NCBI GenBank assembly: GCA_030390025.1
Contig: CM059432.1
Coordinates: forward strand, 98,706,001 to 98,770,000
Length of the DNA: 64,000 bases
Direction of reading: 5' to 3'
Source: Squalus acanthias
Lineage: Eukaryota
Of this stretch, positions 28,443 through 60,391 are shown one piece after another. Position numbers and translations under genes: made by a program. How positions within the stretch are numbered: position 1 is the first letter of the stretch; the number at the start of each line of letters is the position of its first letter. The notes under the pieces are model-generated. The model was not told the origin of the DNA, did not search any database, and saw only the letters and a program-made list of their open reading frames with translations.

Positions 28443-31400
28443 TTTTTTTTTATTCGTTTATGGGATGTGGGCGTCACTGGCAAGGCCAGCATTTATTGTC
28501 TAATTGCCCTTTAGAAGGTGGTGGTGAGCTGCCTTCTTGAACCGCTGCAGTCTGTGTGGTGAAGGTACACCCACAGTGCTGTTAGGGAGGGAGTTCCAGG
28601 ATTTTAACCTAGCGACGATGAAGGATCGGTGATATACTTCTAAGACAGGATGGTGTATGACTTGGAGGGAAATTAGAGGTGGTGGTGTTCCCATGCACCT
28701 GCTGCCCTTGTCCTTCTAGGTGGAAAATGTCGCGGGTTTGGGAGGTGCTGCCGAAGAAGCCTTGGCGAGTTGCTGCAGTGCATCTTGTAGATGGTACACA
28801 CTGCAGCCACGGTACGCCAGTGGTGGAGGGAGTGGATGTTTAAGGTGGTGCCAATCAAGCGGGATGCTTTGTCCTGGCTGGTGTCGAGTTTCTTGAGTGT
28901 TGTTGGAGCTGCACTCATCCAGGCAAGTGGAGAATATTCCATCACAATCCTTACTTGTGCCTTGTAGATGGTGGAAAGGCATTGGGGAGTCAGGAGGTGA
29001 GACACTCGCCACAAAATACATAGCCTCTGACCTGCTCTTGTTGCCACAGTATTTATGTGGCTGGTCCAGTTAAGTTTCTGGTCAATGGTGACCCCGCAGG
29101 ATTTTGATGGTGGGGGATTTGTTGATGGTAATGCCATTGAATGTCAAGGAGCGGTGCTTAGACTCTCGCTTGTTGGAGATAGACTTGCCTGGCACTTCTG
29201 TGGCACAAATGTTACCTGCCACTTATCAGCCCAAGCCTGAACGTCGCACAGGTCTTGTTGCATGCGGGCATGACTGCTTCATTATCTGAGGAGTTGTGAA
29301 TGGCACTGAACACTGTGCACTCATCAGCGAACATCCCCATTTCTGACCTTATGTTGGAGGGAAGGTCATTGATGAAGCAGCTGAAGATGGTTCGGCCTAG
29401 GACACTGCTCTGAGGAACACCTGCAGCGATGTCCTGGGGCTGTGATGATTGACCTTCAATCACCACAACCATTTTCCTTTGTGCTAGGTATGACTCCAGC
29501 CAGTGGAGAGTTTTCCCCCCGATTCATATTGACTTCAGTTTTACTAGGGCTCCTTGATGCCACACTGGGTCAAATGCTGCCTTGATGTCAAGGGCAGTCA
29601 ATCTCACCTCACTCTGGAATTCAGCTTCTTTGTCCATGTTTGGACCAAGGCTGTAATGAGGTCGGAAGCCGAGTGGTCCTGGCGGAACCCAAACTGAGCA
29701 TGTTAATGGTGAGTAAGTACCACTTGATAGCACCATCCATCACTCTGCTGATGATTGAGAGTAGACTGATGGGGCGGTAATTGGCCGGATTGGATTTGTC
29801 CTGCTTTTTGTGGACAGGACAAACCTGGGCAGTTTTCCACATTATCAGATAGATGCCAGTGTTGTAGCTGTACTGGAACAGCTTGGCTAGAGGCGCAGCT
29901 AGTTCTGGAGCACAAGTCTTCAGTACGATAGCCGGGATGTTGTCAGGTCCCCATAGCCTTTGCTGTATCCAGTGCGCTCAGCCATTTCTTGATATCACGT
30001 GGAGTGAATTAAATTGGCTGCAGACTGGCTTCTGTGATGGTAGGGACCGCAGCAGGAGGCTCATATGGATCATCCACTCGGCACTTATGGCTGAAGATTG
30101 TTAGAACATAAGAACATAAGAAATAGGTGCAGGAGTAGGCCAATCGGCCCCTCGAGCCTGCTCCGCCATTCAATAAGATCATGGCTGATCTGATCCTAAC
30201 CGCCAATCTACTAGCTATCACAGAACCATCTCCTGCATCTAACAGAATTGCACACACGAAATAGGAGCAGAATCAGGCTACACGGTCCCTGGGCCCGCTC
30301 CACTACCCACAGGGCCATGACCGGATCCGAACCTAGACTCATGTCCAAATTCCTGCCCGCTCCCCGTAACCCTTAATGCCCTTTACTTCTAGGAAACTGT
30401 CTATTTCTGTTTTAAATTTATTTAATGATGTAGCTTCTACAGCTTTTTGTGGCAGCATATTCCATGGACCTACCACCCTCTGAGTGAAGTAGTTCCTCCT
30501 CATCTCAGTTTTGAAAGAGCAGCCCCTTATTCTAAGACTATGTCCCCTAGTTCTAGTCTCACCCGTCATCGGGAACATCCTCCCCGCATCCACCCGATCC
30601 AACCCCTTCACAATCTTATATGTTTCAATAAGATCGCCTCTCATTCTTCTGAACTCCAATGAGTAGAGTCCCAATCTACCCAACCTCTCCTCATATGACC
30701 ACCCCCTCATCCCCGGGATTAACCGAGTGAACCTTTTTTTCACTGCCTCGAGAGCAAGGATGTCTTTCCTTAAGTAAGGACACCAAAACTGTATGCAGTA
30801 TTCCAGGTGCGGTCTCACCAATACCTTGTACAACTGAAGCAATACCTCCCTATATTTATATTCTATCCCCCTAGCAATGAAAGCCAACATTCCATTTGCC
30901 TTCTTAATCACTTGCTGCACCTGCATACTAACCTTTTGAGTTTCGTGCACCAGGACCCCCAGATCCCTTTGCACTTCAGTACTCTCCAGTTTCTTGCCAT
31001 TAAGATAATAAATTGCTCTAGGATTTTTCCTGCCAAAGTGCATCACCTCACACTTTCCAGTGTTGTATTCCATCTGCCAAATCTCTGCCCACTTACTTAG
31101 CCTGTCTATGTCCCCTTGCAGGTTTTTTATGTCCTCCTCACTCACTACTTTCCCTCCCATCTTTGTATCATCTGCAAATTTTGATATGTTACACTTGGTC
31201 CCTTCCTCCAAATCGTTAATATAGATTGTAAAGAGTTGGGGAACCAACACTGACCCCTGTGGAACACCACTAGTTACTGATTGCCAGTCTGAGAATGAAC
31301 CATTTATCCCAACTCTTTGCTTTCTGTTAGATAGCCAATCCTCTATCCATGCCAGAATATTACCCCCAATCCCGTGATTTTTTACCTTAAGCAATAATCT

Positions 31401-32326
31401 TTTGTGTGGCACCTTGTCAAATGCCTTTTGGAAGTCTAAATACACTACGTCCACTGGTTCCCCTTTATCCACTGTTGGCAGCTATGTCATTCAGCTTTGC
31501 CAGCAGTGGTGCTGCTGAGCCACTCTTGGTGATGGACATTGACACCCTCCACCCAGAGTACATTCTGTGCCCTTGCTACTCTCAGTGCTTCATCCAAGTG
31601 GTGTTCAACATGGCGGAGTACTGATTCATCAGCTAAGTGAGGTTTCCTTGCCTATGCTTGACCTGAAGGCATGAGACTTCATGTGGTCCGGAGTCAATGT
31701 TGAGGACTCCCAGGGCCACTCCTTCCTGACCGTACACCACTGGTGGGGCTGTCCTGCCGGTGGGACAGGACATACCCAGGAATGGAGGAGTTTTGGGACC
31801 TTGGCTGGAAAGGTATGATTCTGTGAGTCAGGCTGTTGCTTGACTAGTCTGTGGGACAGCTCTCCCAATTTTGGCACAAGTCCCCAGATGTTGGTGACGA
31901 GGACTTTGCAGGGTTGACTGGGCTGGGTGTGCCGTTGCCGTGTCCGTAGCCGTTGCCGAGGTCGTCCGTCCGGTTTCATTTTTATTATTTTGTTTCGTCG
32001 TGGTTAGTTACAACTAAGTGGCTTGCTAGGCCATTTCAGAGAGCAGATAAGAGTCAACAACATTGCTGTGGGTCTGGAGTCACATATAGGCCAGACCCCA
32101 GATTTCCTTCCCTAATGGACATCAGTGAACCAGATGGGTTTTTACAACAATCCGATAGTTTCATTGTTACCATTACTGATACTAGTAATTATTCCAGATT
32201 TATTTAATTAACTGCATTTAAATTCCCCAGCTGTTGTGGTGGGATTTGAACTCACATCTCTGGATCATTAGGCCAGACCTCTGGATTACTAGTCCAGTGA
32301 CATTACCATTACGTTACCGCTCCCAG
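28443..32326 (-). mobile_element. LINE family B (EN/RT remnants), interrupted by a young CR1; left boundary firm, right boundary approximate
   Basis: Peptides ALDIKAAFD, GVPQSSVLG, MFADE, NPANYRPISLLSIISR; EN-like TNIWGLVPKLGEL at ~31850-31900. Confidence 0.75.
30103..31472 (-). mobile_element. Young 5'-truncated CR1 LINE with an uninterrupted 377-aa RT C-terminal frame (30339-31472)
   Basis: YLDFQKAFDKV, GVPQGSVL, SKFADDTK; (AGAACATA)n tail; TGTT on both flanks (30099-30102 / 31473-31476). Confidence 0.93.
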
Positions 32327-34499: not shown

Positions 34500-36061
34500 T
34501 GTAAGGGATTCCTGACCCTGCGTGTCTCGTAGCCTGTGAGATTCACGCGGCTCTGTGCAGCCTGTATGTCAGTGCGGGTCTAGGCCTGGTTGCCTGTTCT
34601 GGTCTCCAGCCAGTCTGGGAACACTAGACACACCTGTGAGTGGTTCGAATCACTCTCCCTTACGGTTCTAGACACTGGACTTAGATGCGAGAGCAGTAAT
34701 GGAGATAAAACTCATGTAGACTTGGTTTGAATGGTACGAAATGGAAAATCTTTATTGCATGATACTTAAAATTATGAAATACATGTCATAAGCACAGATT
34801 AATGACAGTACAATCTTACAAACGGTTATATAGTCGATCTTAGGGAAACGAGGAACGAACGGCACAACGTAAATAGGGGCACACATTACAAATATCCTTA
34901 ATCTTTAAACCCTCCCCTATCAATATCTATCCTAAACTAGCTTCGTAGGATCTCGAGACTCATGCTCACCACTCGTGATAACTCGGAGAAATTCCGAATA
35001 GCTGATCGGATGTTTTTCACCGCAGCACCCACGTGTCGGTCAGGAGATCTCCTGGTCCCACTTGTTTACTTGCTTCTGCTGCTCCGGCTAGTAGGCTGGA
35101 CCGTCTGCTGTGGTGAAGACCTCGTGGCGATGGATATGGTCTTCTTCTCTCATCTCATCTCATCTCATCTCATCTCATCTCATCTCGGGCCTTTGGTTCC
35201 GCTGCCAGTTACCAACATAGGTCTTCGTTACGCGACACGAGGTAGATCCGAACGGATCAGAAAGTTCAACAGTCTTTTCAGAAGAGGCAACAGGCACGCA
35301 GAAGCCCAACTACGAGTACACAGGAGCAGCCACGAGGTTACGAATCGACCGGATAAAACACAGGAGCAATCGAGCGAACGCAGGAGCACGAACAAGAGCA
35401 CGAGGCCAGAGGCAAGAGACAAGAGAGCGAGTGGACGGTTTGGGGCCTGCAATTATAGTGCAAAAATCTTCCGTTTCCCGCCCAACTATAATGTCCATTC
35501 TTTTGTTTAGGGTTTGGCGCCCAAATGTCTTGTATGGGTGATCTCCGTCCTTAATGGGTTTCGGGGCTACTCATGAATGTTTGAGTACCTGTTAATATTT
35601 CTCCCATTGTTAAATCGGTCGGTGTTCTCCCTGGAGGGGTTTGGGGCTTCCAAGTGTCCTGTATAACTACCTGCTAACGGCTCTCTCATCGTAGAGTCGT
35701 TGGGAGTTTACATATTAATGTCCTTTGGATGGGCCCTTGATTACTCGGTACAATGGCTTTCCTTTGTACCTGGGAGACCGATTCCAGTATCTATGTTTAT
35801 ACTGTAAACCCATAATGTCTCGTGTATTATCTTCACTGTGCTGAATCGTTATCGATCTTGAAAAAAACGTTTAATGGAACGCCATCTTGTCTGCCTGTTG
35901 AAAAGTCTAGAATGTTCTGTCACGAGGTGCGGCGGCCATTTTACAGGCTGCTTGTGTCCAATTTAAACCTGTCAGCATTCTGCTGAAATAAAAGCTGTTT
36001 GAACGAAACTTTGTGTTTTCTCCTTATTAATCAAATCGCGATATATATTGCGAATTCTACA
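34500..36061 (-). repeat. 3' LTR (1562 bp)
   Basis: Minus strand TGTAGAATTC...CCCTTACA; AATAAA at 34751-34756; internal (GAGAT)n microsatellite. Confidence 0.96.
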
Positions 36062-36483: not shown

Positions 36484-38835
36484 TTACACGGTGCTCTCAT
36501 CGTGCACGCGCACGTAACGTTCTCGCCACTCTCCCGTGTTTTCATGCTTGGTGAGGCGCTTGTCTCTTTTACAATGTATGAACAATAGGTACACTACAAT
36601 AAACACTTGACAGACGACTAAAATGTGGGAGGCTATTCTGATCCATGAAGGCACTTCAATATTGGTGAACAGATTCCACCACGGTGGAACCACTATGTCC
36701 AAAATGTCTGTTCCTATTTCGACAGTTTTCTGCTCTAATGTATAAAAATGTTTCTGTGATACCGCGACGGCTTTCAGAAGTTTGGTTAAATGCTCAGGGA
36801 GAGGGGGAATGAGGTATCCAAAATGCGCGACAAATCGCTGCAAGTCGGTGAAATTCTCTTTTACTGTGAGGTGAACAGTGGATGGTTCAGGGATTGGGAT
36901 AATTCGCTGTTGTGCTACTTGAACTTCAGCCCTGGGTTTAAAACAGAAACTGCTGTCACTCACCGGACACCGGCTACGGTTTCCATGCTGGTAGTGTTGC
37001 GCTGCAGTGGTAACACAATATGTTCCACCCCCGATGTATGCTACCTGCGGAGGCACATGATCTTGTGCCATTGCCTCCATGGTGCAATTCATGGACTTGG
37101 CGCCAGCCGTTCTGAACCCGCACTGTGGTGTTAAAAAGGCATTCAAGTGCTGGGGGCACAGTATTATGTGTGCTCCCCTGCCACGACAACCAGAGAGATC
37201 TGTACCTGTCATCGTTTGCTCCCAGCGGATGACGTAAGGTGGAACCGCTGCATAACGAATGTGGGCTCCCCCCTGAATGACACCAATGTTCTCTACCCGA
37301 TACACCGGGGCGGGCTTTGCTGTGTCGCCCAAAACCGGCATGCGTAATACTATTCCCATAACAGTATGGTTTGATCGTCCGCAGTCCACGGGGACTGGGT
37401 AAGCTTCTGAAGCTAGCCTGAGCTGGCACGGGCTTAATGCGTTCTGAAAAGGGTGGAGCGCCCGCAGGTGTTTGTTACTTATCCAGGACGGAACCAAACC
37501 TTGTTTTAAATCCTCCAAATTACTGCGGCCCTCGCCCAGTAACCACGCCCCGTAAAGCACGCACACCTCGTTCTGCGCAGCTTGATCGGATGCATTCCGA
37601 TCTTCCCTGATCAGGGCATTTACCGTACGCGCATGTTTCTCCAGCTCTGCTATAATTTCCTTTAAATGGAGAGTCATGGCTTGGTCCTCGTGTAGACCGG
37701 ATCCTACCACTTTATTCTCATCTGTTAGAATGTCTTTTAACTGTGTTTTTAAACCATTAATCTGGGTCTGCAGCTCCACACTGTCTAGAGCGTTGACCAC
37801 AGATGTCCCTGTGTTAAAAGCAGTGAACGCATCGTTCACCAAACCCCTTCTTTGCCTCCCTACTTGATCCAAAACTTCCTGCGGTGCGGTGTACAAACTT
37901 GTCTTATCAATTTCTGCAAAATCAAACTCGTAAAATTGTCTGAACATCTTGGTCAACAGGACCTGATACAACTGTTCCGTCTTTTTGGGGCACCACTCTG
38001 GTAACCGTACCTCAGTGAGATTTAAAATCACCGAGGCCACCGCGTAATGTACCCCCTGAAATAGTATCTGGTCTGTGGGGACCAGTACCAAACCGTTCCC
38101 GGGTCCCTTACTAGTTTTAGGGCACCCTTCTTCCTCAGCTAGAACCACCGGAATCGTGGGCGGGGCTTTGCGTGGGCGCGTAATGAGTTCAGTGGCATTT
38201 ACTGGGATCGGGGAGAATGGGGCTCCGCACCCCCTGGTGCTCGCATCCCACCTCATCCCCTGTCCGTTATCCTGCCACTGATTAATAAAAAATATGGAGA
38301 TGCCTTTGGGGCAAACGTACTTTGACCCCCACATACATACATAAATCCCCTCATCCGGTTCCCACCATTTGTCCCAACAGACTTTCACTTGTCCGTCTGT
38401 CCCCGTAATTGTCCGATGGGTATTATTACCCAGTCGTTCCCACTCGACCGAAGAGTTTCTCATAGTTTTGCTCAGCTTTCGCAGCCACCACCATCGGCTC
38501 AATGGGACATCCCCACTACAGGTCAAACAAATCCGTTTGCCGACGGTGACGCTGATCCTGGGTGCGATGATCCGTACTTTGGGGCACATTAAAGAAGTCT
38601 CTTTGTAGGCGAACCCCGATGTGCTGGAATACTCCGTTGAGTTCGTTCCCAGCCATCCTGGCCACCTTCCCTTGTGGAAATAGGTGCTGGTCCCCTCTGC
38701 CTTCCGTCTTCCGGTCCCATCCACCGCGATGGGGGCCGTGTCCCCGGAACATCCAAACACCACGACATCCTTGGTGTGGCCTCGATAGGCCAATCCACAT
38801 CCGATTGCCACGAGCAATACTAGAATTCATTCCAT
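36484..38835 (-). CDS. env: Envelope glycoprotein: signal peptide, Ig-like domain, furin site, class I fusion subunit, transmembrane helix (nonsense codon at codon 3)
   Basis: 777 open codons preceded in frame by ATG GAA TGA ATT CTA GTA. Contains DEGIYVC Ig motif, RQRR|GLVN cleavage/fusion peptide, heptad repeat, Cys-rich region, and TM SHILVVCQVFIVVYLLFIHC. Confidence 0.88.
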
Positions 38836-39124: not shown

Positions 39125-40384
39125 TTAAATTCTGAGAAGGCTGCTGCGAGCTCTTCCCGACGGTGGGAGGGCACTGACCCTTCCCTCTGATCTGCCGCAG
39201 CCTGTTGCTGCGCTGACCCTTTCCTCTGATCTGCCGCAGCCTGTTGCTGCGCTGACCCTTTCCTCTGATCTGCCGCAGCCTGTTGCTGCGCTGACCCTTT
39301 CCTCTGATCTGCCGCAGCCTGTTACTGCTGCGATGTGGCCTGTCTCTACCCGGGTTATCTTAACCTGAAGTCTACGCCTTGGGGCAGTCTGGGGACATGA
39401 CCACATCCTCCTAGGCTGGGGTTCTCTACTTGACCTACGGGGAGTTGCTATGGGCGGGGGTTCCGTGACGGACGGACCGGGTTCCGAGACCTCCAACGGG
39501 ATGACCTGGGGTTCCATCACAGTCGCCGGCTCCGCCTCCGCTGACTCCGCCTCCCTAACCTCGGGGCTGGCAGTTCGTGGCTCCGCCCTGCTCGGCCCAG
39601 CAGGCGGCCCTTCACTCGTGATCTCTGCCTCCCCTGAGGACTGGACGTTCAAGGCGGGCGGCCACATCTCTGGGAGCCACATTGGTACTCTCTGTGCTCC
39701 TATAGCGGCTGGCCCTGCCTCCTCTAGCTCCTCCCTCCTGTCCTCGGGACCTGCAGCTTGTGTGTCCACCCTGTGTGGATCTCTACCTATCGGCCCCATT
39801 CCCCCCAGACCGTTCCTCAGGAACCACCCGTCATCATCACTATGCTCATCTGCACTATCCTCATCTGACCAGGGTACCCTGGGTTCTTCGTCATCTAACC
39901 CCCAACTCCAGAAAAACGCTGCATGATCGTCCGGGATGTCCCTTCCTCTGATGCAAGCTGCTATGCCTGCCTGTGTGCCTTGTGGTCCTACCTGGGGCTG
40001 TGCTTTCCCACTCGCAGGTCTGGCCCCTCCCTTAAGACAGGCCACCGCCCCTGCTTGTTTCTGTGAAATCTCACCTGCTGGAGGCTGCAGATTTCTATCC
40101 TGTTTTAAATACTCATACTCCCTGCTCCTGGCTACCCTGTAGGCTGTTTTTATCTCTCTAAGCTGCCCTTCTAGCCTGAGCACGTCTAACTTTCCCATTG
40201 ATCGGGCGTTCTCCTCCCGCAGGGCCTGCTCTCTAAGCTGCCCTTCCAGCCTATCTATTTTCCCTATTAAGCGGGCGTTCTCCTCCCGCAAGGCCTGCTC
40301 TTTTAACCTGGCCTCCTCACCGCAGACCCCCTCCTGTGCGTGTCTTTTAAAAGGACACAGGTAGGCAGGCTGCGTGGGCTCTAG
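39125..40384 (-). CDS. ORF2 of unknown function in the pol position, in frame with gag via a UGA-CUAG stop
   Basis: 419 open codons directly after the gag TGA: coiled-coil repeats, acidic WSDEDSADEHSDDDGWF patch, Pro/Glu-rich region, 13-aa repeats. No protease, RT or integrase motifs. Confidence 0.75.
   Translation of the reverse strand, partial: LEPTQPAYLCPFKRHAQEGVCGEEARLKEQALREENARLIGKIDRLEGQLREQALREENARSMGKLDVLRLEGQLREIKTAYRVARSREYEYLKQDRNLQPPAGEISQKQAGAVACLKGGARPASGKAQPQVGPQGTQAGIAACIRGRDIPDDHAAFFWSWGLDDEEPRVPWSDEDSADEHSDDDGWFLRNGLGGMGPIGRDPHRVDTQAAGPEDRREELEEAGPAAIGAQRVPMWLPEMWPPALNVQSSGEAEITSEGPPAGPSRAEPRTASPEVREAESAEAEPATVMEPQVIPLEVSEPGPSVTEPPPIATPRRSSREPQPRRMWSCPQTAPRRRLQVKITRVETGHIAAVTGCGRSEERVSAATGCGRSEERVSAATGCGRSEERVSAATGCGRSEGRVSALPPSGRARSSLLRI
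39174..39326 (-). repeat. 39-bp coding tandem repeat, ~4 copies (TGCGRSEERVSAA)
   Basis: Plus-strand unit CTGACCCTTTCCTCTGATCTGCCGCAGCCTGTTGCTGCG. Confidence 0.95.
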
Positions 40385-42196
40385 TCATGGGGCACTATTA
40401 GACGGTCCTGCGGCACCTACGGGGCCGGTTGCGACCGCCACCTGTCCACGCGCATTCAAAACCAGCTTGCGCATGGCTCCTAACACTGCTTCGAGGTCGT
40501 CGGGAGGGGTGGGTGCCTTGGCTTCCTTAGCCGGGACAGGCGCCTGGGTTCGGACCGCGGGATTTTTATCCTTGGAATCCTTCCAAGGGTTCCTGCAGTG
40601 CTTGCGCCAGTGCCCTGTCTTCCCACACCCGTAACAGGCATTACTTGCCTGTGGGGCGCGATTACCCTCCTGATGCCACTCTCTTTGAGCCGGGGCTGCG
40701 GGTCGTACCTCATGTACTCTTCCCTTAAAGGGACGTGTCGTCATACCCCTTATGTTACGGTAACCTAACGTGAGTCGATTCAAGACCGACTCTTCCGTAA
40801 GGTTGAGGTCATTGGGATCGAACCAGGCTTTTGCCTGCTCTCTAACGGCTGGTAAACTGTTGGCTATTATGCACCTAAGCCAATGAATTAGAGCGGCGCC
40901 TTCCACATCTTCGCGCTCGGGCGCACCTAGACAGCTGCGCTCATATACTGGCCACAGCCTGTCGGCAAAAACCTTCGGGGGTTCTCCCTCCATCTGCACT
41001 GTCTGTCCCACTCTAGCAAACGGACCTCCGTCGTTCGCCCCCACTACTTCTAGGACCTCATTTTTCAATTCCTCATAACTTTTGTTTCCCCTCTTGCTCT
41101 CGCCTGAGAGGCACTGAAGGACCGAGCTGTCTAACGAGAACAGCAGCATTTTTGCTGTCTCCCCATCATCGCAGCCGTTAATGGCTGCGGCTTGCTCAAC
41201 TTCCCTGAAATGTACGGAAGGGTCGTCTATCTCGGTCAGCTTCCGTACGTGATTTATCATAGCTCTCAGCTGATGTGAACTGTGAGGCAACACCAGCTGT
41301 CCGAGGAGATCCCCCGGTTCTTCCGCACCGTTTCTGCTCAGGCCCCTTTTAATACCCGTTACTGGATACAACGATCCCTTTTTTACCTCCTTTTCAATGG
41401 GCTCTTTTGTTTCTTCCGTTGCTTCCTCCCTAACCCAGGTTTCTGAATAGCTGGGTGGCGCGGAGGGCGCAGTGGCTACTACTTCTGCTGCTTTACTTGG
41501 TGGGGAATTTCTAAATCTCTCATTTACTAGCGGCTGGTGCGCCGACGGATTGATAAGGCACACCATGCCGTTCGCATTATTCACGGCCTTTTTGAGGCTC
41601 TCTATCTCCCTTTGGCAGGCGCTATGGTCGGCTCCCTGAAACTTATCCTCAAGGGCCAACTTATACGCCGACCTAACCCCCATTAAGCTCTCTTCTTGAG
41701 TTCTTATCTGGGCAGCTTGGCGGTTACATCTTTCCTTTAACCTACTCTCATTCAATTTTGCTTCAGTGACCTGGCACTCGAGATACTCTATCCTTGTTTT
41801 AAGGTAACTGGAGACTTCCTGGCTTTCCTGGTGTAACTCATTTAAATTCTTAATGAGCACCTCCCCTCCAGAAACCTTCTCCTCCATTTCTCCCTCTAAA
41901 TGGCTGACACGAGCTGTTAGCGCTGTAATGGTCTGGTTTGAAATCTGAACCTGCCTTTTGTAGCACATAAGCCAGACTGCTTTCTCAACTGCCTTTTTAT
42001 GTTCCTTACTATCAGTCCACCTTTCAGCTGCCTCTAGTGGGCTCTTATCCGCTAACAATTCACTTATCCACTTCTTAGTTAGATTAACCTTTCCAAACAC
42101 ATAATCCGCTATCTTTTCCTGCATAACATTTCGTACAGTCATTCCAAAATCTAACACACTACCCTCTCGCTGCCAGTGTCCTGCCGCGGTCGCCAT
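40385..42196 (-). CDS. gag: Gag polyprotein (603 aa)
   Basis: N-terminal coiled coil, PSAPPSY late domain, capsid MHR-like QMEGEPPKVFADRL, zinc knuckle CYGCGKTGHWRKHC (40595-40636). Confidence 0.93.
   Translation of the reverse strand: MATAAGHWQREGSVLDFGMTVRNVMQEKIADYVFGKVNLTKKWISELLADKSPLEAAERWTDSKEHKKAVEKAVWLMCYKRQVQISNQTITALTARVSHLEGEMEEKVSGGEVLIKNLNELHQESQEVSSYLKTRIEYLECQVTEAKLNESRLKERCNRQAAQIRTQEESLMGVRSAYKLALEDKFQGADHSACQREIESLKKAVNNANGMVCLINPSAHQPLVNERFRNSPPSKAAEVVATAPSAPPSYSETWVREEATEETKEPIEKEVKKGSLYPVTGIKRGLSRNGAEEPGDLLGQLVLPHSSHQLRAMINHVRKLTEIDDPSVHFREVEQAAAINGCDDGETAKMLLFSLDSSVLQCLSGESKRGNKSYEELKNEVLEVVGANDGGPFARVGQTVQMEGEPPKVFADRLWPVYERSCLGAPEREDVEGAALIHWLRCIIANSLPAVREQAKAWFDPNDLNLTEESVLNRLTLGYRNIRGMTTRPFKGRVHEVRPAAPAQREWHQEGNRAPQASNACYGCGKTGHWRKHCRNPWKDSKDKNPAVRTQAPVPAKEAKAPTPPDDLEAVLGAMRKLVLNARGQVAVATGPVGAAGPSNSAP
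42178..42195 (-). promoter_or_regulatory. Primer-binding site, tRNA-Arg(TCG)
   Basis: TGGCGACCGCGGCAGGAC lies 5 nt after the 5' LTR and is complementary to the vertebrate tRNA-Arg-TCG 3' end GTCCTGCCGCGGTCG-CCA as I recall it. Confidence 0.85.
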
Positions 42197-42200
42197 TTTC

Positions 42201-43764
42201 TGTAAGGGATTCCCCTGACCCTGCGTGTCTCGTAGCCTGTGAGATTCACGCGGCTCTGTGCAGCCTGTATGTCAGTGCGGGTCTAGGCCTGGTTGCCTGT
42301 TCTGGTCTCCAGCCAGTCTGGGAACACTAGACACACCTGTGAGTGGTTCGAATCACTCTCCCTTACGGTTCTAGACACTGGACTTAGATGCGAGAGCAGT
42401 AATGGAGATAAAACTCATGTAGACTTGGTTTGAATGGTACGAAATGGAAAATCTTTATTGCATGATACTTAAAATTATGAAATACATGTCATAAGCACAG
42501 ATTAATGACAGTACAATCTTACAAACGGTTATATAGTCGATCTTAGGGAAACGAGGAACGAACGGCACAACGTAAATAGGGGCACACATTACAAATATCC
42601 TTAATCTTTAAACCCTCCCCTATCAATATCTATCCTAAACTAGCTTCGTAGGATCTCGAGACTCATGCTCACCACTCGTGATAACTCGGAGAAATTCCGA
42701 ATAGCTGATCGGATGTTTTTCACCGCAGCACCCACGTGTCGGTCAGGAGATCTCCTGGTCCCACTTGTTTACTTGCTTCTGCTGCTCCGGCTAGTAGGCT
42801 GGACCGTCTGCTGTGGTGAAGACCTCGTGGCGATGGATATGGTCTTCTTCTCTCATCTCATCTCATCTCATCTCATCTCATCTCATCTCGGGCCTTTGGT
42901 TCCGCTGCCAGTTACCAACATAGGTCTTCGTTACGCGACACGAGGTAGATCCGAACGGATCAGAAAGTTCAACAGTCTTTTCAGAAGAGGCAACAGGCAC
43001 GCAGAAGCCCAACTACGAGTACACAGGAGCAGCCACGAGGTTACGAATCGACCGGATAAAACACAGGAGCAATCGAGCGAACGCAGGAGCACGAACAAGA
43101 GCACGAGGCCAGAGGCAAGAGACAAGAGAGCGAGTGGACGGTTTGGGGCCTGCAATTATAGTGCAAAAATCTTCCGTTTCCCGCCCAACTATAATGTCCA
43201 TTCTTTTGTTTAGGGTTTGGCGCCCAAATGTCTTGTATGGGTGATCTCCGTCCTTAATGGGTTTCGGGGCTACTCATGAATGTTTGAGTACCTGTTAATA
43301 TTTCTCCCATTGTTAAATCGGTCGGTGTTCTCCCTGGAGGGGTTTGGGGCTTCCAAGTGTCCTGTATAACTACCTGCTAACGGCTCTCTCATCGTAGAGT
43401 CGTTGGGAGTTTACATATTAATGTCCTTTGGATGGGCCCTTGATTACTCGGTACAATGGCTTTCCTTTGTACCTGGGAGACCGATTCCAGTATCTATGTT
43501 TATACTGTAAACCCATAATGTCTCGTGTATTATCTTCACTGTGCTGAATCGTTATCGATCTTGAAAAAAACGTTTAATGGAACGCCATCTTGTCTGCCTG
43601 TTGAAAAGTCTAGAATGTTCTGTCACGAGGTGCGGCGGCCATTTTACAGGCTGCTTGTGTCCAATTTAAACCTGTCAGCATTCTGCTGAAATAAAAGCTG
43701 TTTGAACGAAACTTTGTGTTTTCTCCTTATTAATCAAATCGCGATATATATTGCGAATTCTACA
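42201..43764 (-). repeat. 5' LTR (1564 bp)
   Basis: Matches the 3' LTR; the only difference I saw by eye is an extra CC in the C-run at 42212-42215. Confidence 0.96.
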
Positions 43765-49800: not shown

Positions 49801-52800
49801 TATGCTCCAAGCAACTCTATTTCCCAAATTGCGTAGAGTTTGCTATTTAACTATAAATAATATCAAGGTATCATATGAAAATCAGCACAATACGGATGAC
49901 GATAAGATTGGGATTGAATTATATCTGCATGTGCTCGTCTAATTATCCTAGCCCTATAACCCTGCTTCACCTGAAGATTACGCTTAGTCTTCAACAACAA
50001 CAACAACTTATATTTATATAGCGCCTTTAACGTAGTAAAACGTCCCAAGGCATGATCTTGACTCCACATATTCAATGCCATGGCAGATCAACTAGTGATT
50101 ACAATATGGACTTTCTCACTTGCTTTCCAAAGATTCATGCAAACTTTAGGATTAAAATTGTGCTATGTTCAAAAAAATCTTGTAAATTCTGATCAAAACA
50201 TTAATGATATATTTCTTTTTCTCCCTTCGAATTAAGACTCTGTATATGAGAATAATTTTCAATATCTTGGCAATTCATTTTGTTGATTCAGAGTATTTTC
50301 TGAGTCTCAAGTGTTGATTCCTATAATGGTTAAAATGATAAACTCTGCTATCTACTTATAGTATAACCCATATAACTTGTGAAATGGGCCACACAGATAG
50401 AAAATAAATTCTGGAGATGACAGAGTAGTGACAAACATAGGCACTTTACTTACAATACATTCATCACTTCCCCTTCATATACTCTACAGCATTTTGATGT
50501 GTTGCCATTAATCTGACAGAGTCATTTGGTAGTGAGCAAGGATGAGCAACAGAATTTGGGTGGTCTGCCTTATACTGAAACATAACTGGGGACAGCCCTC
50601 AATGCAGCTTAGATGCTTTTATTGTCCATTTAAGTCCATGAGCAGGGGCAGAATTTCTGGGTGGTGCAGGATCCATCTCTGATCTCACTACTAAAAACGG
50701 TTAGGAGAGAGATTGTTCCCTGGATTAGCTTTTTATGGCTTCAGAAACAGATCTTTTCTTCCTTTAAAGAAGTGCAGTTTGTTGCTCTGGATGTTTCTCG
50801 GGTGGGGTCAACCATTCACCTGACCTTCCTCTATCACAGAGCAGTCCTCTCCTTAATTCCTGATTCATGGGGTCTCTTAAGACGATTGTCAACCATTTCT
50901 ATCTGCTTTTGTTGGCAGGAGGCCAGGATCTATTGTGTGGATTCTTGTTGATTCCGTGGGGTGTGGGTAAGGATTTTCAAGGTTAGAAGTCATTCCACAA
51001 AAGGAAAATTGAATCTCTACAAGCCAAGTGCACTGTTGGAGCAACAACTGCCTTCTCTCTTCATGGGATCCTGCTACAGAAATACGGGCTGGATTTTCCT
51101 GAAATCATCGGACAAATGGCAGGGCGGGACTTCAGTGTGTTCACATGAACTCGCTGGCACCTGACCACATTTTCCTTAGGGGAGGGGGGCCTTATTATTA
51201 TCTAACACAAGATTTGAGTGAGAATTCCACTCCAGACTGGGTCTCTGCCGCTAAGAAGGCAGAAATTGGTGTTAGCTGCGGTAGTAAAAATGTTAGTGCA
51301 GTTGAAATGGCCAGAAGTACAGCAGATGATTAAGGAAAGAGAGAGAGAGAGAGAGACTGAGCTGGAGCTGCACCTGAAGCTGAAAAGCAATGGCAGAGGG
51401 AGGACCACCATCATGGAGGTGGAGGGAGGGGGGCTTCTGCAATGACCAAGTTTGCAAGATTCTCAGAAGCAACAGTGGAAGTAATGCTGGAAGAGATAAG
51501 GGCACAAAGACAAGTGAATTAAAGAATCATGCCCAGGAAAAGGATATACAGTCAGTCTGGAGAGAGGTGGGACTTGCACTCAGCTCCAAATCTACAAGTC
51601 CATGGACAGCTATTCACTGCCAGAAATGTTTTAATAACCTCAACAGGCTGGCCAAGGTACATGATGACAGGAATGCCCATGCAGATGCTATGATACTGCT
51701 AGAAGCATGACTCACCTTAACACTCTCCAGGAGTACATGGCGTAAAAGATAAAATGAATGATACTCTTACATAGACACATAGAAGATAGGAGCAGGAGTA
51801 GGCCATTCGGCCCCTCGAGCCTGCTCCACCATTCGATGAGATCATGGCTGATCATCCAAACTCAGTACCCTGTACCTGCCTTCTCCCCATATCCCTTGAT
51901 ACCTTTAGCTTTAAGAAATATATCTAACTCATTCTTGAATATATTTAATTACTTGGCCTCAACTACCTTCTGTGGTAGAGAATTCCACAGGTTCACCACT
52001 CTCTGGGTGAAGAAATTCTTCCTCATTTCTGTCCTAAATGGCTTACCCGTTATCCTTAGATTATGACCCCTGGTTCTGGACTCTCCGACCATCAGGAACA
52101 TTCTTCCTGTATCTAGTTTGTCCAGACCTGTCAGAATTTTATATGTTTTGATGAGATCCCCTCTCATTCTTCTATACTCCAGCAGGTATAAGCCCAATCG
52201 ACCCAATCTCTCCTCATATGTCATTCCTGCCATCCCAGGTATCAGCCTTGTGAATCTTCGCTGAACTCCTTCCATGGCAAGAACATCCTTCCTCAGATAA
52301 GGCGACCAAAACTGCACACAGTACTCAAGGTTTGGTCCCACCAAGGCCCTGTACAACTGCAGCAGGACATCCCTGTTCCTATACTCAAACCCTTTTGCTA
52401 TGAAGGCCAACATACCATTTGCCTTCTTCACCGCCTGCTGCACCTGCATGCTTACTTTCAGCGACTGGTGCACAAGGACACCCAGGTCCCGTTGCACTTC
52501 CCCTTCTCCCAATCTATTGCCATTCAGATAATAGTCTGCCTTTCTGTTTTTGACACCAAAGTGGATAACCTCGCATTTATCCACGTTATATTGCATCTGC
52601 CATGCTTCTGCCCACTCACCCAACCTGTCCAAATCATCCTGGAGTTTCTCGGTATCCTTCTCGCAGCACACACTCCCACCCAGCTTTGTGTCATCTGCAA
52701 ACTTGGAGATATTATATTTAGTTCCCCTATCTAGATCATTAATGTATATTGTGAATAGCTGGGGTCCAAGGACCGATCCCTGCAGTACCCCACTAGTCAC

Positions 52801-53361
52801 TGCTTGCCACTCGGAAAAAGACCCATTAATTCCTACTCTCTACTTTCTGTCCGCCAACCAGTTCTCTATCCAAGTCAATACCTTGCCCCCAATCCCATGT
52901 GCCTTAACTTTACATGCTAATCTCTTATGCGGGACCTTATCAAAAGCCTTTTGAAAGTCCAAATACACCACATCTACTGGTTCTCCCTTATCTATTTTCC
53001 CAGTTACATCCTCAAAAAATTCCAGTAGATTAGTCAAGCACGATTTACCTTTTGTAAATCCATGTTGACTTTGTCCGATCCTGTCACTGTTTTTCAACTG
53101 CTCAGCTATTACATCCTTTATAATGGACTCCAGCATTTTCCCCACTACCGATGTCAGGCTTACCGGTCTGTATTTCACCGTTTTCTCTCTACCACCCTTT
53201 TTGAATAGTGGGGTAACATTAGCTACCCTCCAATCTATGGGTACAGTTCCAGATTCCATCGAATGTTGGAAGATGATCAGCAATGCATCTACTATTTCTA
53301 GGGCCACTTCCTTAAGTACCCTAGGATGTAGATTATCAGGCGCTGGGGATTTATCGGCCTT

Positions 53362-53725
53362 CGGAGTTTGCACATTCTCCCCGTGTCTGCGTGGGTTTCC
53401 TCCGGGTGCTCCGGTTTCCTCCCACAGTCCAAAAATGTGCGGGTTAGGTTGATTTGGCTATGATAAATTGACCCTTAGTGTTAGGGGGGATTAAATATGT
53501 GGGGTTACGGGGATAGGATGGGATATGTTAGGGGGAATTAAATACGTGGGGTTACGGGGATTGGGTGGGATATGTGTCGGTGCAGGCTCGATGGGGATTC
53601 TGTGTGGGAGAGCAGGGACGGGGTGCTGGATTTGGATGATCAGCCATGATCGTATTGAATGGTGGAGCGGGCTCGACGGGCCGAATGGCCTACTCCTGCT
53701 CCTGGTTTCTGTGTTTCTGTGTTTC
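53362..53725 (+). mobile_element. 5'-truncated V-SINE (HE1-like) with a CR1-derived tail
   Basis: V-domain GGAGTTTGCACATTCTCCCCGTGTCTGCGTGGGTTTCCTCCGGGTGCTCCGGTTTCCTCCCAC; tail GGGCCGAATGGCCTACTCCTGCTCC(TGTTTCTG)n. Confidence 0.85.
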
Positions 53726-54784
53726 AATCCCGTCAATTTCCCTAACACCATTTCCCTGCAAATACTGATTTCTTTCAGTTCCTCCCTTTCATCAGACCGT
53801 ATGTTCTCCAACATCTCTGGGAGGTTATTTGTGTCCTCCTTTGTGAAGACAGAACCAAAATATGCATTTAATTGGTCTGCCATTTCTTTGTTCCCCATTA
53901 TAACTTACCCCGCTTCTAACTGCAAGGGACCTACACTTGATTTCACTAATCTTTTTCTCTTCACATATCTATAAAAGCTCTTACAGTCAGTTTTTATGTT
54001 CCCAGCAAGCTGACCTTCATATTCTATTTTCCCCTTCTTAATTAATCCCTTTGTCGTCCTTTGTTGAATCCTAAACTGCTCCCAATCCTCAGGGTTACCG
54101 CTTTTTCTGGCCAATTTATATGCCGTCTCCTTGGATCTTATGCTATCCCTAATTTCCCTTGTTAGCCACGGTTGAGTCACCCTTTTTGTTTTATTCTTAT
54201 GCCACACTGGGATAAACAAATTCTGTAGTTCATCCATGCAGTCTTTGAATGTTTGCCATTGCCTATCCACCATCAACTCCTTGAGTGACATTCCCCAATC
54301 AATCCTACCCAATTCGCGCCTCATACCATCATTTGGAGGTCTATATACCACTCCCACTAACGTTTTCTGCCCCTTGTTATTTCTCATTTCTACCCATACA
54401 GATTCTGCATCATCAGAGCTAATATCCTTCCTTTCAATTGTGTTAATCCCCTCTTTAACCATAATGCTACCCCACCTCCCTTTCTTTTTTGCCTATCTTT
54501 CCTAAATATTGAATAACCCTGGATGTTGAGTTCCCAGCCTTGGCCACCCTGGAGCCATGTTTCTGTAATCCCAATCAAATCGTATTAATTTACCTCTATT
54601 TGCGCAGCTAATTCATCCACCTTGTTCCGAATGCTCCTTGCATTAAGACACCCTTCAGGATGTGTTTTTAATGCTCTCAGACCTATATGAATTATTATTT
54701 ACTGTGACCATGTTTGATTTAAACCATTGAGTACTTTGCCTTCTACTTTTGTTTTTCTCCTTCCTGTCTTTAGCTTTTATCCTT

Positions 54785-56499
54785 TGTAAAGTTTCGCAAT
54801 TATCGCGATTCGAAATAACAAGATAGAAGCAGATTCGTTTGATCAGTTTATTTAAACGAAATGCTGTCATGATATAAAGGACACAGAAGCCTGTAAAATG
54901 GCCACCGAGCATCGTGGCAGAAGCTTCCAGAAGTACCGTGGGCAGACAAGATGGCGTTCGAATAAACATTTTCAATATAAGACGGGATCATACTCGATAA
55001 GCACTGATAAAGACAGGATGAAACCTGTTTGCATTTGTGACAATAGCAAAAGATATGAGTGCTGGAATCGTTTTCCATGCACAAGTAAGGACCATTGTAC
55101 TGGGCAATCGAAGGCCCATCCAGACACATCAATACACAAATACCCCCACGGCTCTACAATGAGAGAGCCATTCTCGGGTGATTAAACAAGTATTCGGGGG
55201 CCCCCAAAACCAGTCAGGGAGACGATTCATACGATCCTGGCTGGGCCAACAATGGGGAAAACATTAACGGGTAGTTGGCCAGTCTCAGGTGCTATCGAAA
55301 CCCGTTAAAGACAAGAATCACCCCATGCTGGGAGTTTTGAGCGCCAATATTTCACAAAGGTCAAACATTAAGATTTGGGCGGGAGATAACGGAACACAGC
55401 ACTCTAACTATAGACAACAAATGTCCATCGCTCTCTTATTCTCTTATCTCGCTGCTGACTGTTGAGGGTTTTATTCTCTTATTCGCTTGCCGCTTCATGA
55501 ACTTGCTTGACTGGTGAGCTTCTGTGCTTTTCCTGGACTTTGTTGACTCTTAGCCGTACTGGTCGGTTATTCGAATGTTGGGTGGAGCTCAAACGGAACG
55601 AGCCGCCTCAACGAGGGCAAGTGACCGAGTGCACCATCCCGAGGGTCGGTAAATGGTGTCCGGACCCGAAGGCCCGAAGAGACGAGACGAGACGAGAAGA
55701 AGAGGAGAAGAATCCACGTGCCGCCACGGTCAGTAAACCCCGACCGCGCCCAAAAATATAAGAAAGAACTTTTCATTGAAGTCTTCCGACAACCGGTGTT
55801 GGGGACAGGAAGACTCTTCTTCGAATTCTACCGACAACTGGTATCAGTACAGGAAGACTTTTCTTTGAATTCTACAGCCGGGCCCGAGTGCTGTCGAGTT
55901 CTTCATGACAGCGGGGAGCCCAGCCTGCTTGCCGCAGCAGCGAAGATAAACAAGTGGGGTACAGAGACCCCTCCAAACACGTGACAGTCAGGCGCTGCAG
56001 CGAAACGAGCCGAGTGCCTCACTTTAAAATTCTCCGAAGTATCACGAGTGGTGAGCATGTTTCCCGATCCTACAAATCTAGACGTAGTGTAGGTATTGAT
56101 AGGGGAGGGTGGTTTTAATAAGGATAAAGTATAATGTGTTCCCCTTTTTACGATGTGCCGTGCGTTCTTCATTACCATAGACCAAGCTTTATGAATGTAT
56201 GTATACTTGTACTCTCGTTAATTTGCGCCTATGACATGTACTTCATGATCTTGGATGCTATGCAATAAAGATTTCCATTTCGTACTATTCAACCAGGGTC
56301 TGTTTGGGTTTTTCTCTGCATTACTGCTCTCGCACCTAAGTCCAGTGTTAGAACCGTAAGGGCGAGTGGGTCGAACCACTCACAGGTGCTTACTGCAACA
56401 AGGCTGGCCGGAGACCAGAGCAAGCAATAGTATTAGGCAACGAAGGCCTAACCCCGCACCAGCACCGTCTGCGATACAAGCACGCCAAAACCCCTTACA
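54785..56499 (+). mobile_element. Solo LTR (1715 bp), third variant of the provirus LTR family
   Basis: TGTAAAGTTTCGC...CCCCTTACA with TSD CCTT (54781-54784 / 56500-56503), inserted between CR1 ORF1 and ORF2. Confidence 0.93.
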
Positions 56500-57476: not shown

Positions 57477-57737
57477 GACTTACCCTTTAATTAATTAATT
57501 CAAATTAAACTAATTGAATCCCACCAATTTCACTTCAATTAAATGATATACTCAAGGGCCCTTGCTTAACAGCAGTCCCCGCTACACCACAGAGACTCTA
57601 GAAACTATAAACCACAGAATTTAAGTATGGAAAGAAGGAGAAAGAGAGAAATACTCACCAACCAATCACTTACCTGCTTTTTGGTGATGTCACACTTCGA
57701 TTACTTTTTACTTCTTTACACTCACCGGTCCGTTGTA

Positions 57738-58442
57738 GCTCACCTTTGAAATCTCCCGAGGTTTGGCGCTCTCCAGCCGCTCTCGCTCACCTTTGAAATC
57801 TCCCGAGGTTTGGCGCTCTCCAGCCGCTCTCACTCACCTTTGAAATCTCCCGAGGTTTGGCGCTCTCCAGCCGCTCTCGCTCACCTTTGAAATCTCCCGA
57901 GGTTTGTCACTCTCCAGCCGCTCTCGCTCACCTTCGAAATCTCCCGAGGTTTGGCGCTCTCCAGCCGCTCTCGCTCACCTTTGAAATCTCCTGAGATTTG
58001 GCGCTCTCCAGCCGCTCTCGCTCACCTTTGAAATCTCCCGAGGTTTGTCACTCTCCAGCCGCTCTCACTCACCTTTGAAATCTCCTGAGATTTGGCGCTC
58101 TCCAGCCGCTCTCGCTCACCTTTGAAATCTCCCGAGGTTTGTCACTCTCCAGCTGCTCTCGCTCACCTTTGAAATCTCCCGAGGTTTGGCGCTCTCCAGC
58201 CGCTCTCGCTCACCTTTGAAATCTCCCGAGGTTTGGCGCTCTCCAGCCGCTCTCGCTCACCTTTGAAATCTCCCGAGGTTTGGAGCTCTCCAGCCGCTCT
58301 CACTCACCTTTGAAATCTCCCGAGGTTTGGCGCTCTCCAGCCGCTCTCGCTCACCTTTGAAATCTCCCGAGATTTGGCGCTCTCCAGCCGCTCTCGCTCA
58401 CCTTTGAAATCTCCCGAGGTTTGGCGCTCTCCAGCCACTCTC
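57738..58442. repeat. 47-bp tandem array, ~15 copies, in the CR1 5' region
   Basis: Unit GCTCACCTTTGAAATCTCCCGAGGTTTGGCGCTCTCCAGCCGCTCTC, head-to-tail with no spacers. Confidence 0.95.
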
Positions 58443-60391
58443 CGCTTTAACTAATTGAACTTAAATTAAATCAAATCAATCCCACCAATTATACTATAAT
58501 TAAATGATATAGGGCACTTGTTTACCAACTTTCCCCGCTACACCACAGAGACCCTAGAAACTTTAAACCACAAAATTTAAGTTTCAAAAAGGAGAAAAAG
58601 AGAAATACTCACCAACCAATCACTTACCTGTTTTCTGGTGACGTCACACTTTGATTATTTTTCACTTCTCTCTCTCCCGCTCTCGGGGCTCAGATTGGTC
58701 GCCTACCTGGTCGCTGCCGCCTTTTATGGCCACCGCCTCGCCGCTGTCGCTCCACACAGGTCCGCCGCCTCTGCATGACCTTTCACCTTCCTTATCTTTT
58801 CCCGCCTGTGGGGCAACATAGAGGCTCAGCACCACCACCTTTACTGTGGCGGTGATTTACAGGGGTAGCAAGTGGATGGAAATTCAGGAAAATCTCAGGG
58901 GGTGCTTAGCCATCCATCCTCTGCTTCATTTAAATGTGGGGCAGATCAGGAACACAGTGGGATCACGGGAGGAAAATTGTGGCGGACGTTTTACAAGGTG
59001 GAGACTTGGTAGAAGGCTTCATCAGCTTATTTTGCTTGTCAGCCTGCCTCTATACTGCCCAAAAATGGATAGTTTTTTCCAAGGAAAATCTAGGCCTATC
59101 TCTGAATTAGCACCTTGTTGGTAGCTGGGAGTGATTAGTTTGGTCAAGTTTAAGTTCAACCAGGAAGTTAGTGGCATTAGAGTCTTCAGCAAGAATCAGG
59201 ACTCCTAGTTACTATGAACATAAGAAGTCAGTGAGTCCCATTACAATATGATATAGCAACATGATCTTAATTCCTCACACACCAAACTTGTGACATGCTT
59301 AAATTGGGCAGTACATTGTACCTTTTTGCCACTCTTATCTTTTATACTTTGAGAATTATGTGCAGTGAAGCAAACAAGTATTGGTGGTAGTAAATTGTAA
59401 TTATTAGTTTGTATTCTGTGGACGAAACCACAAGCAGATCTTCCCTTTTAGTGTTCCCGATTTTAAAATAAAAAATAAAATCCCATGTTATGGTTTCAAA
59501 TCATTTGAAAAGAGGAAATGTAATCAAATAATAAACTAAAATGTAATTGAATTCAAGTAGTTAAAATGGTATGCTTCACTATAGGTAGTCATTAATAGAT
59601 TTTAACAATTCATGTGACATTTCTTTAAGTTTCGTTCCTTTTTCCTTGGAATAAATACTGGATAATAAAATCTTCTGTTGTAGATTCGGCGTTTTGATTT
59701 AATGTTAAAACTCGAGCCAAATTCACATGACAGTTATGTTCTATGCTACAATTAGGTTCATTTGAAACTCATTTTTCAAAACTAAGACAGGTAGAGGTCT
59801 GGTCCCACAAGGCTCTATGTTTATTCTACTGCTCGTTTTACTGTGTATTAATAACATCCCTAAAGATTACAAGTAGCAGTGTTCACATGTGCAGATAATA
59901 CTTCTGGGTGGTTTGGAGTCTGTCTCTGGAAATAAGACTTTTTTGGAAGCAGTGAGAAAAAAGGTAAGCTCAATTGTTTGCAAGCCTTTCAAGTAAAAGA
60001 TGTATTCTGTGTCTTTCTCACTAAGGAGTTGAAATCATGATATATTAGTAGTAAATATATTAATACATTCTAAAGTAATTCCTGCATCCATTGAAGAAAA
60101 AACAAGGAAAGGTTTCCCTCTTTGGCGCATATTGAAAAATTGTGCAACCCCACCTCACGATTTTCCACCCTACAGAGGATAATGCTTATATAATAGCCCG
60201 GTGAATAGTATTATAATGGGTTATTAGCTTTGTTAGAATAGTGAACGAAAGAATTTCAGGCAAATATGTTACTGCATTTGTTAAGGGTAATATTGCACAG
60301 TTAACCCAAAGGTACTTGCTTAAAATAATAAGAAATGAATGGGTCAGCCAATCTAATGGTTCAGTGGGTAACTGTCTGTTATAATAATACT

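Follow-up and report, generated by a model that had tools for sequence, protein, structure and literature searches.

The window analysed here, the whole stretch of 64,000 nucleotides from Squalus acanthias (contig CM059432.1, positions 98,706,001 to 98,770,000 of assembly GCA_030390025.1), carries on its minus strand an endogenous retrovirus whose gag gene ends in TGA-CTAG and is followed, in the same frame, by an open reading frame (ORF2) in place of pol. Comparison with pol-bearing copies elsewhere in the genome, here called helpers, indicates that this TGA-CTAG is the inherited gag-pol junction of the helper family, and readthrough of the stop is very probably the route to Pol in this retroviral group. 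We suggest, with a probability of roughly 0.45, that readthrough by a few percent of ribosomes at the inherited junction yields a 1023-residue Gag-ORF2 protein that would help the defective, pol-less provirus in cis. On sequence evidence, the junction belongs to a known class of recoding signals, is well conserved and is new in its retroviral setting; a defective subfamily has inherited it.

Results

The 3′ end of gag reads GCC CCA TGA CTA GAG CCC ACG CAG on the minus strand, with the TGA at 40387-40385, and the 31 codons 3′ of it (LEPTQPAYLCPFKRHAQEGVCGEEARLKEQA) are in the gag frame, contain no stop and lead to TTG at 40291. The frame stays open for 419 codons 3′ of the gag TGA and ends at TAA 39127-39125 (minus). 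With the ATG at 42196 as its start, which is where homologous Gags begin (at the same upstream ATG), gag has 603 codons, and gag, its stop and ORF2 add up to 1023 residues; the alternative ATG at 42142 would give a gag of 585 codons and a fusion of 1005 residues. Re-reading and translating the minus strand therefore bears out two claims of the original prediction, that TGA-CTAG ends gag in frame with ORF2 to give a fusion of about 1023 residues, and that 31 stop-free gag-frame codons separate the stop from the called ORF2 start. That called start, TTG rather than ATG, is present at 40291 but is no start codon; the earliest in-frame AUG of ORF2 is codon 63. The heptamer TGACTAG occurs seven times in the window against 7.3 expected, which is chance level, and the significance of TGA-CTAG thus rests on its position and conservation.

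A genome search with Gag found helper copies, with Gags 98–99% identical to that of the window element, in which the same TGA-CTAG is followed in frame by an intact pol of 1507 codons in the layout LTR-gag-TGA CTAG-pol-env-LTR (LTR, long terminal repeat). The Pfam domains of helper Pol (P0006) run RVP, RVT_1, RT_RNaseH, RNase_H, Integrase_H2C2 and rve, the Retroviridae-type order with two RNase H domains. The peptides encoded after the stop are homologous between the window element and the helpers (LEPAQPVYLC against LEPTQPAYLC). It is because stop, context and frame are the same in the helpers that we regard TGA-CTAG as an inherited gag-pol junction; the original prediction had named the presence of TGACTAG at the gag/pol junction of autonomous relatives as a check, and it is there, in frame.

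Genome-wide, TGA precedes 3826 of 3861 sites that fit the junction pattern, and in 3785 of these 3826 it is followed by CUA or CUG (84 CUAG, 14 CUGG and 2 CUAA among the first 100 sites listed). The synonymous codons TTA and TTG follow it at 11 sites, the level of single-copy mutation. When the first codon of the motif was left free, the junction was recovered in 141 of 150 loci, some of them the same place fetched twice, and all had TGA. Distant families, whose Gags are 53–71% identical over the last 300 residues, have TGA-CTA-A, TGA-CTA-G or TGA-CTG-G ahead of the protease, and TGA-CTAG is retained in 85 of 87 distinct pol-less copies. The conserved context is therefore UGA-CU(A/G) and wider than the CUAG of the original prediction. 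A sense codon or a different frame in other copies, which would have spoken against the prediction, was looked for and not found. On the largest contig, 18 of the first 30 loci with the junction are of the pol type, 8 are of the window subfamily, 3 of a sister pol-less family and 1 of a third pol-less family. A seeming frame difference among copies (499 against 501 aligned bases) was traced to end clipping: 30 of 30 copies compared lack any indel at the junction. As these sites represent a handful of lineages and not thousands of independent events, conservation alone lends modest support.

A stronger argument for readthrough than the site counts comes from the arrangement of gag and pol. The two genes share a frame, which excludes frameshifting, and the protease match in helper pol begins at residue 17, ahead of the first AUG at codon 24; the distance from gag stop to the protease DTG is 36 codons in ORF2's helper family. 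Pol might instead be made from a spliced RNA, by re-initiation at the AUG of codon 24 in the manner of foamy viruses, or after editing of the stop, with ORF2 silent or translated from codon 63, but we consider these routes unlikely. Met24 is retained, followed by G at +4, in all but two of the 29 pol-type junction variants (27 of 29); the family that we label A and part of family C have, 3′ of the stop, a pyrimidine-rich stretch with AG at its end; and an AUG overlaps the gag stop in most families. Yet a start at codon 24 would truncate the protease match, the AG after the pyrimidine-rich run is missing in family B and others, and the AUG overlapping the stop is in the -1 frame, closes after 13–15 codons and does not exist where C or G is the final base of gag's last codon. 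Neither splicing, re-initiation nor editing explains why UGA-C in frame with gag should be fixed. Contigs from four of 14 listed runs, the four presumed to be RNA, searched over 39340-42800, bridge the pol-less junction in two runs, although contigs show neither level nor absence; no splice-type joints were seen in them, an absence that contigs cannot establish. Longer fused Gag-Pol proteins were not found among 8000 candidates, which is weak evidence.

TGACTA, at 40387-40382, is one of the two hexanucleotides (UGACUA and UGACGG) of type II readthrough, which in the relevant passages of PMC13517186 has been tested in alphaviruses, a coltivirus and a triatovirus. The conserved in-frame reading frame expected behind a type II stop is present both as helper pol and as ORF2; the stop is TGA-C and not the UAG-G of type III. 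In human cells, UGA-CUA alone gives 1.5% readthrough and requires no structure, according to the part of PMC4132726 that deals with it.

The original prediction had proposed folding the sequence 3′ of the stop; neither folding nor covariation among pol-type junctions gave a significant conserved downstream structure. The window copy could form a hairpin from +7 to +70 with z of -1.8 to -2.6, its 3′ arm drawn from insert sequence, and the downstream folds of relatives have z from +1.0 to -1.7. Pol-type junctions show one-sided pair changes only, and their synonymous variation (0.29 vs 0.29–0.49, in windows limited to codons up to 140 as an indel misaligns the sequences beyond) shows no clear drop. 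A possible 6-bp hairpin at +10 (40375-40370 with 40360-40355, minus) is compatible with 29 of 29 junction variants, though partly fixed by the filter motif, and in a test for the type III pseudoknot (H-type, behind an 8-nt spacer) its loop could pair with +76-80 in pol-type junctions, the distal strand being missing in the window element. In the third pol-less family a CAC/GTG pair appears, by eye, to be compensatory.

ORF2 is no gene of its own but a pol that has suffered an internal deletion and carries an insert derived from gag. In blastn alignment, the window element matches the helpers up to 40353 and again from 40018, with 3.7 kb of pol replaced by 334 nt. ORF2 thus consists of some 11 codons of pol, an insert of 110 codons and a post-integrase tail of 298 codons that ends at pol's own stop. 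The sister pol-less family has a longer insert that matches the Gag coiled coil (E 7e-16), and single-sequence fold prediction places two confident helices in the insert (residues 20–59 and 65–97, pLDDT 78–96) and leaves the tail unstructured. The third pol-less family, an independent one, consists of pol fragments strung together. The genome holds 882 occurrences of a 33-nt sequence that, matched exactly, marks the window subfamily. Among L183-L212, the ORF2 type of the window is coupled to gags 67–99% like that of family A; at L190 the sister type accompanies a B-like gag. One ORF2 type behind varied gags argues for recombination that has recurred at the gag-pol junction or close to it. We also considered whether ORF2 might be the lokiretroviral 'smc' gene, and rejected this: smc is the gag N-terminus according to the supplement of the lokiretrovirus paper, and ORF2 maps to pieces of pol and gag. 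At L127/L128 a third-family pol-less copy also lacks env (LTR-gag-ORF2-LTR, about 5.5 kb), with a 364-codon frame still open.

The leftover pol frame looks selected to stay open. Of 87 distinct copies, 83 have an ORF2 that is open as far as pol's native stop, with about 18 lengths of 368–423 codons. Shared length variants keep the frame in nine of nine cases in ORF2 (seven of seven without the 39-nt repeat), vs 3 of 17 in the non-coding spacer (p 3.5e-4). At least eight deletion or insertion joints in the three pol-less lineages keep native frames: four in the third family, three in the sister family, one of which rests on a weak match (E 0.019), and one further loss of 46 codons in the window subfamily. 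Single-copy stops in the tail number zero against 4.7 expected; five 'shared' tail stops in the variant tally are classing artefacts of multi-base variants, and the frames concerned are open. A count of intact gags in the same tally, which flagged 14 of 87 copies, lumps diverged gags together with broken ones and was set aside. The tail motif R[RK]SxRxPQP[RK]xxW is matched in 83/85, 14/16 and 15/20 copies of the three pol-less lineages and also in helper tails, with synonymous changes in its core and replacements around it. One element (L129/L130) bears the motif twice. The motif and the alternating basic/hydrophobic stretch behind it are conserved in the integrase tails of all families, which otherwise diverge, and are a possible chromatin or BET docking site. 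When the tail peptide was modelled in complex with the ET domain of a host BET protein, the score was 0.31, below the mark of 0.34, and controls scored 0.00–0.02.

Several observations weigh against a function for ORF2 or for its junction. Of the 87 loci, 57 were selected for their likeness to the window junction, insert or gag, and all copies are young and about 99% alike. Single-copy length variants in ORF2 are in frame in 6 of 10 cases, four breaking it (classed by bin). Spectrum-corrected omega is 0.44 for gag, 0.67 for the insert (p 0.07, a trend only) and 1.18 for the tail (p 0.93), which leaves the tail without overall amino-acid constraint, and pairwise omega for the insert ranges from 0.35 to 1.16. 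The tail variants and the conservation of the motif may have been imported by recombination from helpers, where the tail is part of integrase; RNA signals near env may be the reason that the tail persists; and template switching between coding sequences may favour in-frame joints. At the junction itself, CTC or CTT follows TGA at 41 sites, 26 of which belong to one UGA-CUC sub-variant, often near contig ends, and a 7-bp helix (+20-26 with +74-80) that is compatible with 28–29 of 29 pol-type junctions cannot form in the window element, where its 3′ strand is deleted.

Discussion

In the mechanism that we favour, a near-cognate tRNA would decode UGA owing to the CU(A/G) context (type II readthrough) in a few percent of ribosomes, and Gag-ORF2, by analogy with Gag-Pol, would co-assemble with Gag and bring the coiled coil and the tail motif into helper-supplied particles. 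The features selected would be the coiled coil and a disordered tether bearing one conserved integrase-tail motif, probably a docking site for a host factor or for chromatin, and the minor Gag-ORF2 product may act in cis on the model of the mouse intracisternal A-particle (IAP) 1-delta-1 fusion. A broader proposal, tentative and on balance doubtful, is that a cartilaginous-fish retroviral group uses the alphavirus-type UGA-CUA for Pol, and that its satellites three times dropped the enzymes while keeping the leaky stop with the integrase tail, metering a Gag-tethered host-docking motif to gain an advantage over the helper.

Selection might act on translation itself and not on its product, with ribosomes that pass the gag stop shielding the genomic RNA from nonsense-mediated decay. 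This would fit a tail that keeps its frame and avoids stops without overall amino-acid constraint, and in the reporters described in the pertinent sections of PMC5360307 low readthrough inhibits decay, a second in-frame stop serving as the unstable control. We nevertheless think it unlikely, although a serious contender: ORF2 covers only 1.26 kb of the several kb that lie 3′ of the gag stop, longer downstream frames require more readthrough (same sections of PMC5360307), and decay protection does not explain why the same tail and motif recur in three lineages and why one element has the motif in duplicate. Less likely still is that the stop is leaky but a relic, ORF2 being open since the family is young, descends from a complete pol and is renewed by exchange with helpers through recombination. 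Such an origin agrees with the LTRs without mismatch and copies about 99% alike, with a tail 96–97% identical to that of helpers and an omega near 1, and with the frequent recombination implied by one ORF2 type paired with gags whose likeness to family A spans 67% to 99%. Against it, changes confined to pol-less copies are also in frame, namely the 46-codon loss, a loss of 9 nt in the insert, a 33-nt junction variant in 25 copies and the four joints of the third lineage, and random joints would keep the frame with a probability of 3^-8, about 1.5e-4. A cis-acting Gag-ORF2 product stays the reading that we prefer.

Among known systems, the closest context is that of the type II group. In the parts of PMC13517186 and PMC4132726 that describe them, the alphaviruses, PSIV, OPRL1, AQP4 and MAPK10 have, as here, UGA followed by CUA(G); a UGA-CUG variant also occurs in alphaviruses (PMC13517186, same part), as it does here, and the helper resembles them in its long in-frame polymerase frame downstream. 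The present case differs in being a retroviral gag-pol junction, in having no significant extended stem-loop and in being known from sequence alone. Its layout is that of Moloney murine leukaemia virus (MoMLV), walleye dermal sarcoma virus (WDSV) and snakehead retrovirus (SnRV), in which one stop, in frame, separates the CCHC knuckle from the DTG of the protease (PMC13517186, retroviral section); the retroviral readthrough cases listed in that section are UAG-G in gamma- and epsilonretroviruses and SnRV, which is type III and accompanied by a pseudoknot in gammaretroviruses, and UGAAGA in SSSV, UGACGA in ZFERV and UGAAGU in RMEV, in contrast to UGA-CU(A/G) here. XtERV-S likewise has an in-frame TGA gag stop (PMC8278194, its section on the element). 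SSSV, ZFERV, RMEV and XtERV-S, of fish and frog, thus resemble our element in an in-frame UGA between gag and pol with predicted readthrough; the contexts of the first three are not UGA-CUA, and the portions of PMC13517186 and PMC8278194 that treat these viruses describe no pol-less, frame-keeping satellites. Searches of the open-licence literature found no retroviral gag stop described with UGA-CUA, although Repbase entries or supplements may hold one.

Defective derivatives also have a precedent. The mouse IAP 1-delta-1 element is, in the pertinent part of PMC6466679, a helper-dependent, highly amplified deletion derivative whose open Gag-Pol fusion is reported to act in cis, and the window subfamily likewise combines an enzyme deletion that keeps an open frame with the presence of a helper. 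The 1-delta-1 deletion removes the end of gag and makes the fusion constitutive (same part of PMC6466679), whereas here gag and the leaky stop are intact and the fusion would be minor; unlike 1-delta-1, the window element keeps env and has a gag-derived coiled coil inserted. The integrase tail of MLV, as described in the relevant portion of PMC4027182, resembles the tail here in being disordered past the SH3 fold and in bearing a short conserved motif with Trp and a basic/hydrophobic stretch, but its BET motif WX7PLK[IL]R is not matched: family A has W-x6-P-RRR-LQVKITR, families B and C differ, and the tail here has 200–290 residues. Neither gag-pol readthrough nor a deletion derivative that depends on a helper is a new kind of phenomenon, and the surprise is moderate. 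The junction would add the type II UGA-CUA context to retroviral gag-pol readthrough, tested so far only for the gammaretroviral UAG, and some 3800 natural copies of one junction are a resource for study. If the open frame is selected, nature has, in the pol-less lineages, tried out more than once what a defective retrovirus must have in cis, whether a product or only translation that averts decay, and a conserved 13-residue motif is brought to notice in a long integrase tail.

As to placement, the nearest Pols are the frog and coelacanth 'NYNRIN-like' proteins (44–46% identity), grouped with support of 95/98 in one tree and not resolved in another, and the closest named Gag is a skate protein. 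SnRV has an arginine-tRNA primer and a Gag coiled coil, and both are found here together with an in-frame gag stop near the protease. Locus L243 has gag-TAG-GGC-pol, as described for SnRV, with the stop about 32 codons before the DTG; in the reverse transcriptase (RT) tree it joins class I-like sequences (98/93), and ORF2's helper family does not group with it. In RT trees built without named lokiretroviral sequences, a teleost clade next to gypsy is separate from the helper family. Lokiretroviruses numbered zero in six chondrichthyan genomes, and several have a fused gag-pol (PMC7947760, host and genome-structure passages). A viral collection searched with a single RT gave no match, and a metagenome scan gave 80 distant loci (26–32% identity) that were not used.

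Other features of the provirus and the window

The provirus is 9.3 kb long and reads as young: its LTRs, at 43764-42201 and 36061-34500 (minus), differ by no mismatch and one 2-nt indel. Its parts are listed in Table 1.

Table 1. Coordinates of the parts of the ORF2-bearing provirus within the window
Feature	Position	Strand	Evidence or remark
5′ LTR, TG...CA	42201..43764	-	0 mismatches and one 2-nt indel vs 3′ LTR
Primer-binding site, tRNA-Arg(TCG)	42178..42195	-	Complementary to 3′ end of host tRNA-Arg(TCG) genes
gag, 603 codons; coiled coil, capsid-like region, CCHC knuckle	40385..42196	-	Pol-bearing copies have a gag 99% identical
gag stop and context TGA-CTAG, predicted readthrough site	40381..40387	-	Same junction in pol-bearing relatives
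First ~11 pol codons, retained after deletion	40353..40384	-	blastn match to pol-bearing copies ends at 40353
Insert in place of 3.7 kb of pol; gag-derived coiled coil common to sister pol-less family	40019..40352	-	No pol match
pol C-terminal tail beyond integrase SH3-like domain, to native pol stop; predicted disordered	39125..40018	-	Pol-bearing copies 96–97% identical in DNA
Tail motif R[RK]SxRxPQP[RK]xxW (ORF2 residues 316–328)	39401..39439	-	Kept in three pol-less lineages and pol-bearing tails
Basic/hydrophobic stretch LQVKITR after tail motif	39370-39350	-	Sequence
39-nt tandem repeat within tail, copy number variable	39132..39326	-	Sequence
env frame, 780 codons stop to stop	36484..38826	-	In-frame stop just inside start region, window copy
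3′ LTR	34500..36061	-	Target-site duplication CAGC, 4 bp, on both flanks

At 42196-42178 (minus), 5 nt past the LTR, the probable gag ATG and the primer-binding site for tRNA-Arg(TCG) overlap at the first base of that site. Tandem arrays of a 1.62-kb unit with tRNA-Arg(TCG) lie at G000:C26 39.0-42.2 Mb (L178-L182), with 431 pattern matches genome-wide, and would be an abundant source of primer for the ORF2-bearing family. The env start region (about 38835-38826, minus) is closed by a stop only in the window copy and is open in 56 of the 57 copies examined; the stop is present there despite LTRs without mismatch. Likeness of Env to the paramyxovirus F protein (PF00523) gave no Pfam match at E 0.1 and no PDB match, the resemblance being limited to an RXXR site and layout seen by eye. 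Its N-terminal part (about 38540-38330, minus), upstream of RQRR, has Cys...Trp...D-x-G-x-Y-x-C and looks immunoglobulin V-like, again by eye and with no Pfam or PDB match. Head-to-tail proviral tandems with an LTR in common occur at L135/L136 and L239-L241.

Elsewhere in the window, 3182-4667 and 55836-56274 hold older LTR relatives on the opposite strand, which are 75–88% alike in pieces and probably represent solo LTRs from related families. A long repeat whose frames are broken is present in three diverged copies, about 70% alike, at 20131-21917, 30103-31481 and 51766-53982; these are probably fragments of long interspersed nuclear elements. Tandem arrays with units of 47 nt, 21 nt and 16 nt occupy 57589-58593 and 62209-63900.

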